In this document: in pieces, positions 40,101 to 64,000 of the stretch
Layout of the letters: each line of letters starts with the position of its first letter
Numbering within the stretch: position 1 is the first letter of the stretch
NCBI GenBank assembly: GCA_951406725.2
Contig: OX597827.1
Location: forward strand, 49,662,001 to 49,726,000
Direction of reading: 5' to 3'
DNA: 64,000 nucleotides
Source of the DNA: Octopus vulgaris
Taxonomy: Eukaryota
Notes under the pieces: generated by a model
Database searches by the model: none
The model's input: only the letters and a program-made list of their open reading frames with translations
Told to the model about the DNA's origin: nothing
Position numbers and translations under genes: made by a program

Positions 40101-42931
40101 CAAATATCTTAATCACAGCACTTTATCTATACATGTATATGGCTATGCCAGTATGAAAGTTTGAGTGTGTCAACTTATTTTTTAATGATTATATTAAATA
40201 GAATTATATTTCGTTTTTGGATTTGGTTTGCAAGATTCTTTGTGTGAGTTCATGTGTTGAAGCATATTCTGTTGTGTCTGGGGAAAGTCATTTTCTTTTT
40301 GTGCCTTATAATATAACACACTCACCGGTAAAATTTCCACGTTTTTCTTATTTTTATTTTCCTAAAATTTTCGTGGAGTCTTGCAACCTTTTCAATAGTT
40401 TTTCAACCTTTTCAAGAGTCAAAACTATTGAAAAGGTTGCAAGACGCAACGAAAATTTTAGGAAAATAAAAATAAGAAATAAGTGGAAATTTTACCAGTG
40501 ACTCTCCCCAGACACAACAGAATTAAATAGAATATTTATTCTATTAAACTGCCAAGATTTCAGAGTGTTTTCTTTAATTAATTAGTTTGTGCCTCTAATT
40601 CTCACTGTTTCTTGCTAATACATATTTCTGACATACACAGAAGATCAAAATTTCAATGTGGGTTAGGACATATATTCAGTCAATTTAATTAACCCCAGTG
40701 CCTCACTGGTACTGAAATACAAATTTATCAACTTCAAATAATTTGAAAGATAAAAGTCAACCTTGACATGACTTCAGTTAAAAATGTAAAAGGACATTTC
40801 TAAATATAGCACATTAATCAACTATTTACTGATTCTGTAATTCCATAATTCAATGGGTTTTTATTGTATATTTCTAACAATCAGTCTGTATTGCATTGTA
40901 TTGTAACTATTGTACATTGTAAAGTATAGGTAACTGCACTACATCCTGAAATGTTACCCTTTGTATTTCAGTATTATGGAAATGCTATTGTCCTTTAATG
41001 CTTCGGTCAATGGAAAAGATGAGTCAGGGAAAACAGCGTGAGTATTTAGAGCATCTTGTTTTATTTATTCAACAATGATATCAGAGAGACCAATGATTAG
41101 AAAAATTCTGATTCAAGGACCCCATATAACTCCTCATAACTTTTTTATTTTTTGAAATTTTCAGAAAATGTTTGCACATGGTTCCGGGTTCAGTCCCACT
41201 GCGTGGCACCTTGGGCAAGTATCTTCTACTATAGCCTCGAGCCGACCAAAGCCCTGTGAGTGGATTTGGTAGACGGAAACTGAAAGAAGCCCGTTGTATA
41301 TATGTATGTGTGTGTATATGTTTGTGTGTCTGTGTTTGTCCCCCGACATTGCTTGACAACTGATGCTAGTGTGTTTGCGTCCCCGTAACTTAGCAGTTTG
41401 GCAAAACAGGCCGATAGAATAAGTACTAAGCTTACAAAGAATACGTTCTGGGGTCAATTTGCTCGACTAAGAGCGGTGCTCCAGCATGGCCAGTCATATG
41501 ACTGAAATAAGTAAAAGAGTAAAGAGTAAATGTGTGTTCAACACATGGGAATTCATATAATTATGCAAAAAACAATTTTTTAATTTTTATTTTTATTTGA
41601 AAATTCCCCAAAATAAAAAAGTGAAGGATTACATGGCATGCTTAAACCAGAATTTCACCCAGTGATTTGATCACATTTTAGTTATCTACTTTCCATTCTG
41701 GCTTGAGTTGGACTCGCCATCATAATCGGTCAGTTCTTATGAAGTTACTGCCCTCCTAGGTGTGGTTAAAGGACCATGTCTCACTTGTATATTTTCCTTT
41801 GGCATAGTTTCAATGGTTGGCTGTCCTTTCTAATACCAACCACTTTACAGAGGGACTGGTTGCATTTTATTGTGATAGGTTGCTATAGCCTCAGCAAGAC
41901 AAGAACTAAATTTTACGATTATATTTGATTTTAATATTGATAACAGAGATTTTTTTTTTAATTAGAATTTTGTTTTTAAATTGAAATTGAATTTCAGTTT
42001 TTATCAAAATTCAGATAAAAGTGTAACTTTGTCCCTCACCAACAATATTCTCCTGTTGTCTCTGTTTTGGGAAACATGTTAGTTTAATTAATTCAGTTTT
42101 TCATAGGTGGTGAGCTGGCAGACACGTTAGCGCACTGGGCGAAATGCTTAGCGGTATTTCGTCTGTCGTTACGTTCTGAGTTCAAATTCTGTCAAGGTCG
42201 ACTTTGCCTTTCATCCTTTCGGGGTTGATAAATAAAGTACCAGCTTCGCACTGGGGTCGATGTAATCGACTTAATCCGTTTGTCTGTCTTTGATTGTCCC
42301 CTCTATGTTTAGCCCCTTGTGGGCAATAAAGAAATATAATTCAGTTTTTCATACAAAGTAAAAAAATAAAGAAGGAAATTGACAAAAACAATATGTAAAA
42401 TAACATATTTCTTTCTATTTTTTATGGGTTTACTTCAGTTTAATGCATGCCTGCATACATGGTCAATTACCAGCTGTGAAGATGCTGCTCAATAATGGTG
42501 CGCTCTATAATGATTTTGATTTGGGTGGTTCTAGTCCATTGCATTATGCTGTTGACAGCTGCAAGTGTGAGCTCATTGAATGGATGATCAAGGATGGAGC
42601 AGATGTGAACATTCAAGACAGAAATGCTGGTTGGACTCCATTGATACGGTGTGGTGAGTTACATTTTTTAAAAAACTGATTGGAAAGCACATTTATTGTG
42701 TGTGTGTGTGTGTGTGTGTGTGTGCTTGTTTTCATAACTGCAAGGTTTAAGACATGTGCATAACATGTATGTATAAAATACTACAATTAGCTGCCGTCAT
42801 TTTTGATAGCAGGGTGCCAGCGAGTAAAAAATGAAAACCGTATATGGATTCTATTTAATTTTAAAAATAAAATGTATTTCAACTCTGACTTTGTAAACAT
42901 TCAACGTGTATATATATTTTTTGGGACACCC

Positions 42932-42980
<49 letters not shown>

Positions 42981-43798
42981 TCACAATTAGGGTGAAAAAA
43001 ATTGAATATTAATTAATAACATCAATTTAAAACACCAAGTGGCCTAGCGTATAAAAAGACTGGGATACAGTAAAAATTATTAATACAAGTAATAAGAGAG
43101 AGACCACATGTGGTCACTCTAACGCTAGATATAGATCCGCAAAGGGAATCCACCACTAAAGAATTGTTCTCAAGAATTAATTCAACACGCCAAGAATGTA
43201 AGCGAGCAGGACAAATAAAAAATAACGAAAAAATAGGTTAACTCTATACAATTGTTTCATCGTTAATAGATTGTGTAATTTTACTTACATAATCATTTTC
43301 GAATCTTCAGTAGAGTATATCAAAAAAATATAATTTGCTGAACCGAACGCCAAAATCCACACGAAGCCGAACAAAGGCGAACGGCACAGCCGATTATACT
43401 TGCAGTTACGTTCAGATATCCTTATTCTGGCGTGTTAGAAACCCGGATGTAAATACTACCCCAATAATTTACTGCCGGTTTGAGAACATATTAATTTATA
43501 ATTAAAATCACAATAAGGGTAAAAAAAATTGAATATTAATTAATAACATCAATTAATAACATTTTTGATATACTCTACTGAAGATTCGAAAATGATTATG
43601 TAAGTAAAATTACACAATCTATTAACGATGAAACAATTGTATAGAGTTAATCTATTTTTTCGTTATTTTTCATTTGTCCTGCTCGCTTACATTCTTGGCG
43701 TGTTGAATTAATTCTTGAGAACAATTCTTTAGTGGTGGATTCCCTTTGCGGATCTATATCTAGTGTTAGAGTGACCACATGTGGTCTCTCTCTTATTA

Positions 43799-43841
<43 letters not shown>

Positions 43842-44044
43842 TCAAAATGTGACCACATGTGTACCGTTGGCGATTTTTTTCTTCTTCTGTCCTCCCTTCT
43901 CTGGATCTTTCCTTCTCCTATGTCTCTGACGAAGAGCTCCGCTCGAAACGTTAAACCCTCCTTCTTTCCTGAGCATCCAATAATACTATATTTGTTCCAC
44001 GTCCTTGCGTTGTTGTGTTTTTTTGTGCTTTCATGTTTGGATTA

Positions 44045-44106
<62 letters not shown>

Positions 44107-47100
44107 TATATATTGATGTGAGGTATGCTTTTACTGTATATATTTTTCAGCTTCCCTTTCTGGTAAGAAATTAGTTGCTCTTACATTGCTCCATAATGGA
44201 GCCAATACTGATCTGAAGGACAACAATGGGAAGACCTGTTTAATGGTTGCTGTTATCAATGGACATCAACAATTAGTGGAAGTCCTTCTGGAGAACAATG
44301 CTGATATCACAATATTAAATACGGTTAGTGGATTGCCACCCCTTTGATTTTCATCATTGATCATTTCCCTCCTTTCATCATAGATTGTTACCATTATTAT
44401 TGCCATTTAGCCTCAAGTTAGCCCTGATAGTACATACCTTATTCTAAAAGATATCCTTGCTGTTACCAGCCTATTTTTTGGTATTTCAGAGACCTCATTG
44501 CTCAATATATCCTTATTATTTACAATTTTAGCATGTGATTGTATGGAGACTTGACTGTACTGATACTCCATATTTGGCTTAAAGTACAACTCAAGTACTT
44601 GGATTGGTGGGATTAACTTCTACTGTTACAATAATGGCTACTACTACTCAGAGCTGAATTTATGCCAATTGCACTCAACAAGTTCTGTCCCATTCACCTC
44701 TCCTACTCTCTTCGTCCTTATTGTGTTCCTACCCCAGCCATGCACTACGCCATGACCAGTCCTTCTTTCTTAAAACATTGTTCCTCTGGAATTCCCTCTC
44801 TGCTCATGTCTTTCCTGCATAAAGATTCAAGAGGAATGGCTGTAATAATTTTCTACCCCACCTGCAAATTACTAGCCTTGTGTCCAAATTAGAAACAATT
44901 ATTATTGTCGGCATAGTAGGTAAGAAACAAGAGAGCTATAAATGAAATATTTCGCTTTTGGATTTGGTTTGCAAGATTCTTTATATGAGTTTGTGTGTTG
45001 AAGCATATTCTATTGTGTCTGGGGAGAGTCATTTTCTTTTTGTGCCTTATTATGTAACACATTCACCGGTAAAATTACCACTGTTTTCTTATTTTTATTT
45101 TCCTAAAATTTTCGTTGCGTCTTGCAACCTTTTCAATAGTCAAAACTATTGAAAATGTTGCAAGACACAGCGAAAATTTTAGGACAATAAAAATAAGCAA
45201 AAAGTAATTTTACCGGTGAGTGTGTTACATAATAAGGCACAAAAAGAAAATGACTCTCCCCAGACACAATCTAAATGAAATATTCACACTGCTACATTTA
45301 GTTATGTTCTATTGTTTTACATCAGTTTTCCCACCTGTAATTCCATGAGTACTTATGATTCATGTTGAAACGATTGATTTCCACAGTTGGAAGCCCTTCC
45401 TATTTACCATTTAAAGTGATATCTGTTTTGTATCCAGTCAGCAAAAATGAATCAAGGAGTATTATATGCCTTACTTGAGTAAGGCACATAACACTCACTC
45501 TGTGGCCCTACTAGTACACCACTTCCTCTTTTTGCTTCTAATAATAATAATAATAATAATGGCTACTACTACTCAGAGCTGAATTTATGCCAATTGCACT
45601 CAGCAATTTCTGTTCCATTCACCTCTCCTACTCTCTTCATCCCAAGGAATTACAACCGTGTTTTGTGGTCTGCTACCACAACAGCTCCTTTATAGGATCC
45701 AGTTAGTTCAAGATAACATCAGGAGAAACCACGTCCGGTTTCGGCCCCTACTCCTCTACCATTTTGACGTGGCGCCCCCCGCTTCGGAGGTGTCTTCAGC
45801 TCTGGTGTTGGGTGCATATCTTCTTTCTTCTTCTTTCTTCTGTTCCCTGGCTACTTCAATGTGTCATCAGCGAGTGTCAGCCGGTGACTGACTGACTTGT
45901 CAAATTTTTCCCCTTAAATACCTGCCACTAGGCTCCAGCAGGCAGCCCCAGCTAGTTGTCACGTGTTCCTACCCCGGCCATGCACTACGCCATGACCAGT
46001 CCTTCCTTCTTAAAATATTGTTCCTCTGGAATTCCCTCCCTGCTCATGTCTTTCCTGCATAAAGATTCAAGAGGAATGGCTGTAATAATTTTCATTTGAA
46101 CTCATGATCCTCAGGTTCAGCCTACGCTAATATACTCTTTTACTTGTTTCAGTCACTTCGCTGTGGCCATGCTGGAGCACTGCCTTTAGTCGAGCAAATC
46201 AACCCCAAGACTTATTCTTTGTAAGCCTAGTACTTACTCTATCGGTCTTTTTTGCCGAACCACTAAGTTACGGGCACGTAAACACACCAGCATCGGTTGT
46301 CAAGCGATGTTGGGGGTGGGGAGACAAACACAGACACACAAACATACACACACACACACACATATATATATACATATATATACATATATACGATGGGCTT
46401 CTTTCAGTTTCCGTTTACCAAATCCACTCACAAGGCTTTGGTCGGCCCGAGGCTATAGTAGAAGACACTTGCCCAAGGTACCACGCTGTGGGATTGAACC
46501 CGGAACCATGTGGTTGGTAAGCTAGCTACTTACCACGCAGCCACTCCTACGCCTATAGTAATCTATAATATTATTTTGTCTTCCTGCATTCTTGTTTGTT
46601 TCATCTGTATTATGCTTACACCAAGGGAGGTAATAACTTGAATGGAGAACTATAGCGAGAGAGAGAGAGAGAAGTGGAAGGGAGACAACAAAATGGAATA
46701 GTGGAATTAGTGGAAAAGATAGACAAGGAAAACATGAAATAGAGAGAGAGAGGTGGGGAGAAGGTCTATATTATTCTACATTTATGTTAAAATTGCAAGC
46801 ACAATTGAAATGCTTAACATAATGAAACAGTGTCATGACCCATAAATTTATGCTTTAAAAGATATATCAATAGATAGTTAAGTTAAAGGGAAATAACCTT
46901 AGTTAGCAAATAGTTGTGGAAATGGACACTTTTATTTTTAACGTGTTCCAGACCAAAACCTGTGACCGTGTTGGGGCAATGGTGTTATCCTTTTCTTTTT
47001 TTTCTGTTAGGTTTAAATGTTTATTGATATCTATATATATAAAACTGTAGTTGTGTGAGTGTCTGTCTCCTACGATTTAGATTCCTAACTCCTCCCACAT

Positions 47101-60652: not shown

Positions 60653-61333
60653 AATTAGTAAATAAATGGCACAACTAAGTACCGATATTTACTGGAAATA
60701 GTGAACGTAAAAATACGACGTTAATGTGTAGCTTCACCGCGTATGTATTAGCAAAAATGCGTGTGTGCAACAAAATAGAGAAAAAAAACCGTCTTACCTC
60801 CAGGGAGAACATCTGAAAGATGAAACACCCGGAAAAGGATAATGTGGTACCTGCAGGTTTCAGGTTTTACAAGATATGTATCTCACCCATATTTTGTTTT
60901 ACCTTCATCAGCCAAACATATACCAAGACGAAATCTACGATGTTACCACATAAATACTAACACACTCGACTGAAATGCGGAACGCTAACAGTACGAGAAA
61001 TGGTGAAGAAGTTTCAAAATATCAGTAATGCAATACAAAGTATTGCCTTCCAGTAAAAAGTAGCCCGTGAGGGAAAAATACACAAATTAGTAAATAAATA
61101 TATATATATTTATATATACAAGCAATAATAAATCTCTGAGCAAGGTATAAACAGTAGCTGCAACACATTGTGAAGTATATTTGCCACTTAAATGTGGCTA
61201 ACCCCTAAGGGTGGATGCTACTGTAGCTTGTAGCCCCAGGAGGACACCTCCTCCAGCTGGCTATTGATGCACTTTCTGTGCCCTGTCAGTATTTGCGAAG
61301 GGAAGCCATCCTCCCCACCTTCAACCTATGATA

Positions 61334-61378
61334 CACACGAACTCGAGTTTCTGGGTATTGACACATCATCAGCGTGTG
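61334..61378 (-). ncRNA. Minimal type I hammerhead ribozyme motif
   Basis: Reverse complement reads CACACG-CTGATGA-TGTGTCAATACCCA-GAAAC-TCGA-GTT-CGTGTG: 6-bp helix I, canonical core, 5-bp helix II with one mismatch, palindromic helix III. Confidence 0.68.
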
Positions 61379-62243: not shown

Positions 62244-62603
62244 GGTATGCCTTGCCAAAGGGCAACCCATAATTATGCAGAACATAGTCATCACTTAAGG
62301 AGGTATTTTCAAAGTACTAGCATAGCCAGACACACATACAAAGTATCAATAAAGTAATGCTGGAAAAATACATCATTTGTGGCCTCATACCTCTGTTAGA
62401 AATTATTTTTATTCTTAGTTTAAACTCTGCAAATACTGACTTTGCTTTTCAGCCCTATAAGTTTGATAGAACAAGTTTCACTGATGCATTTTAGGTGAGG
62501 TTGGAGGTGGCTAGTGCAGATACTAATAAAGTTATCCATACAATTTTGTGTTTATTTCTACCATCCTAATTTTAACTTTAAATTTTTTTTTCTACCTGAT
62601 CAG

Positions 62604-62787
62604 ATAAAATTTCGGTCGCAGATCCTGATGTGACTTCTTCAAACCATTATTCTGTACATCTTGATTGGTCTTCTTCTCTGCTCCAGTTCAAATACCACAT
62701 TCTAAATGAAACTGAGAGAATCTACACCATTGCACAGCAATGTGAAGGTCATATTGAACACGAAGATGGCTGGAAAAATGTATATAT
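62604..62787 (+). CDS. FANK1: FANK1 paralog (copy B) exon 2; gene continues beyond the window
   Basis: 184-nt exon, same length and phases as 26125-26308, open frame [60 protein letters not shown]; 42 of 60 aa identical to copy A by manual count. Confidence 0.9.
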
Positions 62788-64000
62788 GTATGTACACTAA
62801 TATGTGCTGATTTATCTTGTAGGATAGTTAACTTTAAAATTTAAAGACGATTTCATTTATATGAAAATAGTTATTGCTGTTGTTTAATCCAGTTTAGCCT
62901 TGATACAGGAGACATATAATCAAAGACATTCCAGCTGTGACATTCCTGTTTTTTTTATTCTTACAGAGTGTATTTATGTTAATATTATCTAATGTGTCTT
63001 TCTTTGTCAGACCTGATTCAGTAACCTTATTATTAAAGACATTCTAGTTTGAACAATCTGTGTTTTATTTAATGTGATTTTCCATTTTTTTTAAGATGAT
63101 AGGATGTAAGATGAAATAAATTTGGCTGCTATTTCAGGTAGATTGAGCAGATGCATAAATGATTCTATATTCCTTCTCTCCATTGATGAAATTGCATTAC
63201 TGCTGCTGACCTTAATCAAATAGTACTGTTCAGTCAAGGTCAGCTGCACATTAAACATTACTGAAAACAATATAAACTATTGAGTGTAACTTTTATTGCT
63301 TTTTGCTGATGTGGTATAAATTAGATACAGTGGCTCTGAAGTTAAGGTGATTCACAACTGATTGCATAGCCACATGTCCAATTCTTATTCCATATAGATG
63401 CTAATCATTTACTTTCATCAACTGAATGATTTTCTGATAACAATCTTCACAGCAAAACTAAGTATATTTACATGCACTCTGATATACAGTGTGGTACAAT
63501 ATATGATTAAGCTTTGTATGTATCAGAATATATTTTTTAGGAGTTTGTGCCTAAATTAGAGAATATAGTATTTTATACCAAGCCTGAAGACAGTTTTTAC
63601 AAAGACTCAAAATTACTAGAAGCTAGTTTTTTATCACCAAATTTTCTCCACAACAAGACTTAATATATTTACATACCTACAATAAACATCTGCTGTAACC
63701 ATGCCATCTTTCCTGGAGGTTTGCATCCAGAGCTTGGACATCCGGTATATTCATCTATTTTTAAGACTGTAGGATAAAACTTGGAGCAAATCTAAGAGCT
63801 GTTGCATGCACAGAATATATCATGTAATGTACTAGTAATAATACTTAAAATCATAAAAGAAAATACAAACCTTATTTTAATTCACACTATAGAACTTACT
63901 CTAAGCCAAACTTTATTGTAGAGTGGATATAGTTGATGTTAGTAAATCACTGATACTTTCTTAGTTGACACTGTGTGAAGATGGAAGGCAAGTTTGACAA

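Follow-up and report, generated by a model that had tools for sequence, protein, structure and literature searches.

Inverted hammerhead ribozymes in an intron of an Octopus vulgaris FANK1-like gene: a probable record of two-ended insertion by a Penelope-type reverse transcriptase

A fairly young, non-coding insertion of a 527-bp family lies in an intron of a FANK1-like gene of Octopus vulgaris, and its two mirror arms very probably arose in a single event driven by a Penelope-type reverse transcriptase. The inverted pair is most likely the footprint of both DNA ends being primed from one RNA source; we favour this reading because autonomous Neptune-type elements of the same genome follow the same end rule. 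The feature is not special to the FANK1-like gene: sampling recovered 137 insertions of the dispersed family, this one included. The insertion is real but ordinary, and no sign of host-gene regulation was found.

The original prediction placed a hammerhead pair in intron 7 of FANK1. The exon 5' of the intron matches a protein named FANK1-like at 100% identity, and six coding exons were mapped 5' of the intron; residues 1-3, which stayed unmapped, require one extra exon, so that the number 7 fits and the placement holds. The intron (42654-44150 of the window, the whole 64,000-nucleotide stretch that was analysed) is spliced GT..AG in four of five RNA-like runs, the fifth being without exon cover. 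These runs are assembled contigs, unstranded mixtures of family copies in which no editing signal was readable, and none of the listed holders is recorded as RNA. The contigs end at the TA tracts, and no listed piece bridges a locus-specific junction or the empty site. A second FANK1-like paralogue begins in tandem at window 62600-62788, with 69% identity to the host gene exon, and the next intron holds a near-perfect 259-bp palindrome (45012-45270), probably a MITE, whose Rfam matches are only sub-threshold and of miRNA type. The features of the locus are the following (window coordinates, strand, description).

42439..42653, plus: host FANK1-like ankyrin exon upstream of the intron (100% identity; RNA-like contigs join it to 44151)
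42942..42973, no strand: left (TA)n target tract (from the sequence; family arms mostly end in TA tracts)
42974..43561, minus: long arm, covering the 527-bp retrozyme circle 1.12 times (588 nt), with the long end at 42974
42974..43082, minus: 109-nt tail from the short end (43083) to the long end (42974)
43241..43316, minus: long-arm hammerhead in minus-strand sense, with the cut predicted 3' of 43247; the host pre-mRNA carries its antisense
43555..43562, no strand: inversion junction of the two 5'-truncated arms; about 7 bases look, by eye, like a short copied insert
43562..43805, plus: short arm, unit positions 236-479, stopping at the short end
43572..43647, plus: type I hammerhead in the sense orientation of the pre-mRNA, with the GUA cut expected after 43641
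43585..43629, plus: extended helix II, 45 nt with 17 pair positions; GUAAGU at 43600-43605
43768..43790, plus: hairpin just 5' of the short end (fold; similar sister-family hairpins by eye)
43801..43838, no strand: right (TA)n target tract (from the sequence)
44151..44323, plus: host FANK1-like ankyrin exon downstream (spliced RNA-like contigs and exon mapping)

The inverted arms, predicted as about 240 bp with few mismatches, were found at 43078-43326 and 43562-43810 as 249 nt with 6 mismatches, of which three lie at the outer end. The direct repeat from which a unit of about 527 bp had been proposed (42974-43027 and 43501-43554) carries 2 mismatches in 54 positions and does have a period of 527. 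It is the overlap of a partial tandem, because the minus strand from 43561 to 42974 reads 588 nt of a 527-nt circle. The two arms diverge, each with its 3' end leading into (TA)n. Within the 109-nt tail lie a hairpin and a motif (43034-43048) common to the sister families; the hairpin at 43768..43790, judging from its predicted fold, is a candidate mark for the start of reverse transcription. Neither an ORF for RT and GIY-YIG inside the element nor a long ORF in the six frames of the unit was found. As it carries about 1% private changes, the copy in the FANK1-like intron is young. Another, very abundant repeat occupies window 43842-44048 in the same TA tract; it contains a small hammerhead-like core (43926-43953) without helix I, which is changed in most contigs of its family, and a 12-letter stretch in common with the short-end hairpin.

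The family unit, a circularly permuted repeat, is 527 bp long, has 33% GC, is non-coding and carries one type I hammerhead, as a metazoan non-LTR retrozyme unit does. The core pattern matched the genome exactly 100 times (reversed control, 0) and the 26-letter end motif 79 times. After exclusion of duplicates, locus-edge pieces and relatives below 78% identity, 168 loci gave 137 distinct insertions, with 80 head-to-head, 57 in single orientation and 0 tail-to-tail. The arms are mostly flanked by TA tracts, the (TA)n target of Penelope-like insertions, and the family shows the Penelope-like combination of a partial tandem, an inverted 5'-truncated copy and a tail at one end. No poly(A) and no target duplication were found at insertions of the 527-bp family. 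Together with a hammerhead present throughout the family and a covarying helix II, this substantiates the link to Penelope-like elements and retrozymes that had been proposed. Two ribozymes in direct tandem were present in 4/137 insertions and are absent from the intron copy. At one locus (L051, 2020-7545) an LTR retrotransposon sits between the two pieces of one insertion of the family.

The 5' ends of the arms are scattered and the 3' ends fall at unit position 479 (short) or 588 (long), 109 nt apart. A short end was paired with a long end in 62 of the 63 head-to-head insertions with both ends canonical, the remainder being one short+short and no long+long pair (P about 7e-18 for 62/63 unequal ends, against 50%); the other 17 of the 80 have one eroded end and could not be scored. 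The sample holds a few local duplicates (L069/L070, L011/L141) and is biased to copies with the ribozyme or the short-end motif, neither of which would exclude equal-end pairs. Partner arms agree at 273/284 subfamily-diagnostic sites (96%) vs 58% for other arms, and their median difference is 3.2% vs 5.8% (33 insertions); sibling RNAs of one active master could also cause such allele sharing. The junctions of the two-piece insertions (n=76) are short overlaps in 41 cases, short inserts in 28 and blunt in 7.

The same rule was seen in autonomous elements of this genome. In the young Neptune-type family D, 18/18 head-to-head insertions have one of each end, the two ends bounding a 47-nt tail; 16 of these loci had been chosen as nearby opposite-strand matches and 2 as long-ORF copies. 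In the Neptune-type family A, 7/8 scorable insertions obey the short/long rule, with a tail of about 42-44 nt (scored by eye). Both families encode a C-terminal GIY-YIG with a Cys linker. Family D (L269-L306), of which >90 copies encode an identical endonuclease protein, has open frames of up to 782 codons and an AC-rich tail, and was likely active recently. The terminal repeat of family A (L131-L138) appears, by eye, to carry the U3-A8 hammerhead variant known from Schistosoma. The sister retrozyme family W gave 4/4 scorable insertions with short+long ends among 30 loci, and its tail is 135 nt. This family (L240-L268) is very young (98-100%), has a 538-bp unit with a canonical G-C hammerhead and a GUC site, and forms arrays of at least 1.5 kb, many of them with the direct tandems that are rare in the 527-bp family; it is the best candidate for cleavage and circle work.

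A linkage to a Penelope RT/GIY-YIG ORF, suggested in the original prediction as a check, was seen in a sister family and not in the 527-bp family itself, where none of the 168 loci has a direct junction with a Neptune-type ORF. Family V (L071-L100), an older sister retrozyme of about 540 bp with 2341 first-look candidates, adjoins Neptune-type ORF pieces directly in 2/30 loci (L052/L071, L089), and one locus passes from the 527-bp family into V. The terminal repeats of families A and D, the two compared, are unlike the 527-bp unit, and the parent search yielded no autonomous element with the unit sequence. Since neither a shared-sequence autonomous element nor a direct ORF junction is at hand, the mobilising enzyme is read from the footprint.

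From the end rule and the allele sharing we infer the following steps of copying and joining. A Penelope-type RT/GIY-YIG complex would cut the (TA)n tract, both DNA ends, each at its own start site, would prime cDNA on RNA from a single source, multimeric or circular, and the pair of truncated cDNAs would then be linked 5' to 5'. Arms that exceed one unit, such as the long arm of the intron copy, call for a multimeric or circular template. The ribozyme would serve the element's own cycle, probably working as a dimer that trims tandem transcripts to single units. Published Penelope insertions combine a partial tandem with an inverted, 5'-truncated copy, and often only one end bears a tail (PMC8557442); a Penelope-type enzyme with two internal RT start sites cuts and extends both strands and is predicted to be a dimer (PMC11167929). 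The strict end pairing finds no counterpart in vitro, where the anole Poseidon enzyme showed no start-site difference between the strands (PMC11167929). On balance we lean towards Penelope-type retrotransposition being obligately two-ended, with the octopus extended-helix-II retrozymes riding it through their own hairpin-marked start sites, 109-135 nt apart, and without kinship to the helper; every two-ribozyme insertion would then be born self-silenced, as a side effect.

Two other origins of the inverted pair have to be weighed. The inverted arm could have been added after insertion, through fold-back repair of one existing arm or because the same TA tract independently received another insertion. 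Junctions with short overlaps (41/76) or short inserts (28) do look like repair, and nested insertions are drawn to TA tracts (L054, L052), but fold-back copying would yield equal ends, and independent insertions would yield equal ends in half of the cases, some tail-to-tail pairs and unrelated alleles. With 62/63 unequal ends, no tail-to-tail insertion and 96% agreement between partners, an origin after insertion is largely refuted already and we regard it as extremely unlikely. Alternatively, the family might owe its movement to an agent that is not a Penelope-type enzyme (a different LINE, or a DNA fold-back or rolling-circle route), the common end rule being convergent. This would suit the lack of a sequence tie to an autonomous Penelope in the families compared; however, variable 5' ends, fixed internal 3' ends, (TA)n targets without poly(A) or target duplication, a short/long rule identical to that of the Neptune-type elements and the direct junctions of V with Neptune-type ORF pieces all speak against it, and we hold such a mover to be very unlikely.

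Single-event insertion by a Penelope-type enzyme bears on a task named as open by Craig et al. 2021 (PMC8557442), the origin of tandem and inverted Penelope-like insertions, of which the intron copy would be a clean record by a likely route. In Li, Clavereau and Pollet 2026 (bioRxiv 10.64898/2026.07.22.740005), the case for an animal retrozyme helper is made only via co-occurrence and homology. The near-strict end rule, common to a retrozyme clan and to autonomous elements with numerous identical copies, makes a sharp prediction for the bench and offers a workable pair of enzyme and template. In the literature searched on Penelope-like elements and retrozymes we found no match for this rule, although supplements could hold end statistics.

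By analogy, the intron element would behave as metazoan non-LTR retrozymes do, with a Penelope-like element as its mover (PMC7229834; bioRxiv 10.64898/2026.07.22.740005). In common with metazoan non-LTR retrozymes as described in PMC7229834, the family has a non-coding, low-GC unit with one type I hammerhead and a self-paired predicted fold. Its unit is larger, 527 bp vs 150-450, its 45-nt helix II is extended, and its copies are mostly of about one unit, dispersed and with inverted arms, unlike the retrozymes of that paper. The words 'Octopus' and 'inverted' are absent from the main text of PMC7229834, whose supplements could list cephalopod families. Li et al. propose retrozymes to be non-autonomous Penelope derivatives, the same dependence as suggested here, and the 527-bp unit falls within their range of 51-972 bp. 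Their argument rests on co-occurrence and terminal-repeat homology in Xenopus, with no cephalopod in the accessible text, whereas the octopus link is a footprint with no homology found. The intron copy lacks the two consecutive complete units by which they define an active element. In their cleavage assays 1/9 retrozyme dimers cleaved.

Neptune/Nematis-type elements (Craig et al. 2021, PMC8557442) resemble the octopus insertions in the partial tandem, the inverted 5'-truncated copy, the one-end tail and the (TA)n. The octopus family differs from them by having no ORF, a tail of 109 nt (135 in W) vs 30-40, and a near-strict pairing of short and long ends where that paper says 'often'. The Poseidon element PAc in vitro (Frangieh et al. 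2024, PMC11167929) has, like the octopus family, two RT starts 3' of the hammerhead that bound the tail, cutting and extension of both strands and an AT-rich target. Unlike in octopus, no strand difference in start was seen with PAc, and the accessible text of that report gives no description of paired site use at one target.

The ribozyme itself was as predicted, a type I hammerhead at 43572-43647 on the gene's sense strand with its reverse complement at 43241-43316. On the plus strand, helix I (43572-43577/43642-43647, 6 bp), CUGAAGA (43578-43584), helix II (43585-43629), GAAA (43630-43633) and the palindromic CAAUUG (43634-43639) make up the motif. When both window strands were scanned with a generic type I pattern, 3 matches emerged, the two arm motifs and an unrelated one at 61378. 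The latter is a separate hammerhead-like motif (61317-61378, minus strand) with a short helix II and a longer helix III. The Rfam Hammerhead_1 model gave a match that spans exactly 43572-43647 with a score of 16.7 bits (E 0.12), below the 34-bit gathering cut-off; it appears only when 131 bases are scanned and is absent from a 5-kb scan. The model treats the long helix II as an insert, and sister W scores 27.5 bits. The type I core (CUGANGA, GAAA and a NUH site) is fixed in four families, with N7 variable. A table of core conservation across copies was set aside and is not counted as evidence of conservation, because some loci had been chosen by the core pattern.

Helix II of the 527-bp family is real, as judged from covariation: 7/17 pairs are altered on both sides in 38 alignment rows, and slid controls drop to 28-41% paired. 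The rows were picked from 64 distinct variants so as to span subfamilies, and their kinship inflates the shuffle control. Helices I and III are invariant within the family, and helix I is altered in sequence yet still paired in V and W. The sister units V, W and L057 (53-67% unit identity) all keep the core, the long helix II and GUAAGU at its tip, the V copy in one such comparison having a decayed core. GUAAGU is invariant across the alignments of the four families and complementary to the 5' end of this genome's U1, with a chance of about 1 in 5 for any 6-mer to be invariant at the divergence of these families. The 45-nt covarying helix II tipped by GUAAGU and the tails of 109-135 nt are new features.

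At the base of helix II, the 527-bp family departs from the usual type I hammerhead, in which position 10.1-11.1 is paired, mostly as G-C. This position is a U.U mismatch in the intron copy, is unpaired in 33/38 rows (nearly all U.U) and A-U in 5, and is G-C in V and W. The axolotl HHR_Amex2 (PMC7229834) also has U.U at the base of helix II; it has a 2-bp helix III and reached 22% cleavage as a monomer, better as a dimer (PMC7229834). For the octopus motif the active monomer is predicted at -9.8 vs -11.8 kcal/mol for the best fold, 2 kcal/mol worse, and the active dimer at -30.8 vs -31.2 kcal/mol, a gap of 0.4, from which the hammerhead of this family is predicted to need dimers. The predicted fold of the circular monomer has a z of -4.2 to -5.7 (15-30 shuffles), and the antisense strand is similar. 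The dimer action invoked at first thus agrees with the folding of the family motif but cannot apply between the two intron ribozymes, which are on opposite strands and therefore form no dimer with each other.

Minimal Penelope hammerheads (Cervera and de la Pena 2014, PMC4209133) share with the octopus motif the type I topology, a palindromic helix III region and predicted dimers. Compared with that type, the intron motif has a 6-bp helix I, a far longer helix II and a genuine helix III, and it is not of the minimal, helix-III-less class. Opposite-strand hammerhead pairs 100-700 bp apart have already been noted in Schistosoma (PMC4209133).

The masking of the sense ribozyme by the antisense arm is borne out by folding, with 76/76 ribozyme bases paired with the left arm in the predicted duplex and -467 kcal/mol for the element. 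Such masking is forced by geometry, because a read-through transcript always meets the antisense arm first, and this order needs no selection, because a head-to-head insertion shows its antisense arm first from either side. The ribozyme of the intron copy would be close to silent, because there is one motif per strand, the monomer favours an inactive fold and a duplex of about 244 bp would enclose it in any read-through transcript. As with other young inverted repeats, the intron hairpin would probably be edited by ADAR as a bystander, because A-to-I editing in animals falls mainly on young repeats (PMC9989829). The host-gene lesson is deflating, the masked ribozyme being a default product of the insertion mechanism.

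One might instead regard the pair as a co-opted switch, in which the ribozyme, masked by the antisense arm, is freed through ADAR editing or unwinding and then cuts the FANK1-like pre-mRNA. The complete burial of the ribozyme, the absence of private mutations from both motifs, the editing of young repeats (PMC9989829) and the conserved intronic hammerheads of amniotes (PMC6155905) would be in keeping with such a switch. The head-to-head geometry, however, is the family default, and the absence of private mutations is unremarkable, because a private divergence of about 1% should give only about 2 changes in 152 ribozyme bases. Moreover, a freed monomer is predicted to be weak, editing would presumably strike core adenosines too, and splicing is normal in 4/5 RNA-like runs, from animals that may or may not carry the insertion. 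The domesticated amniote hammerheads are likewise type I and on the sense strand of an intron, but they are conserved across species (PMC6155905), whereas the octopus copy is a young member of a dispersed family. We consider a switch highly improbable. The regulatory coupling originally suggested also finds no support in the family: inverted arms are its commonest shape (80/137), and both arms hold a ribozyme in 10/60 two-piece insertions vs 13.9 expected under independence. A stricter regex left 6 intact inverted ribozyme pairs among the 137 insertions.

Three side readings were not adopted. Fossils of editing would appear as an excess of A>G, which was 5.5 vs 3.9 per 1000 for T>C (p 0.045, one of five uncorrected tests) and absent in W. 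An intron within the ribozyme (donor GUAAGU at 43600, acceptor at 43732) is unsupported, its joint being absent from the 5 RNA-like runs. No genomic copy lacking this intron was found, the single regex match being unrelated DNA, and the acceptor is not retained in W or L057. We call it no more than unsupported because Penelope introns are usually retained. For an snRNA-type promoter in the tail we built a matrix from the U1/U2 upstream sites of this genome; the shared motif scored -4.7 to 2.7 in the four families vs 6.4-18.8 for left-out true sites, and the best matches were no better than shuffles, which rejects such a promoter for these families. The U1/U2 genes themselves (L307-L356) have in common an element with an ATCAGT core that lies about 57-60 bases 5' of the start.
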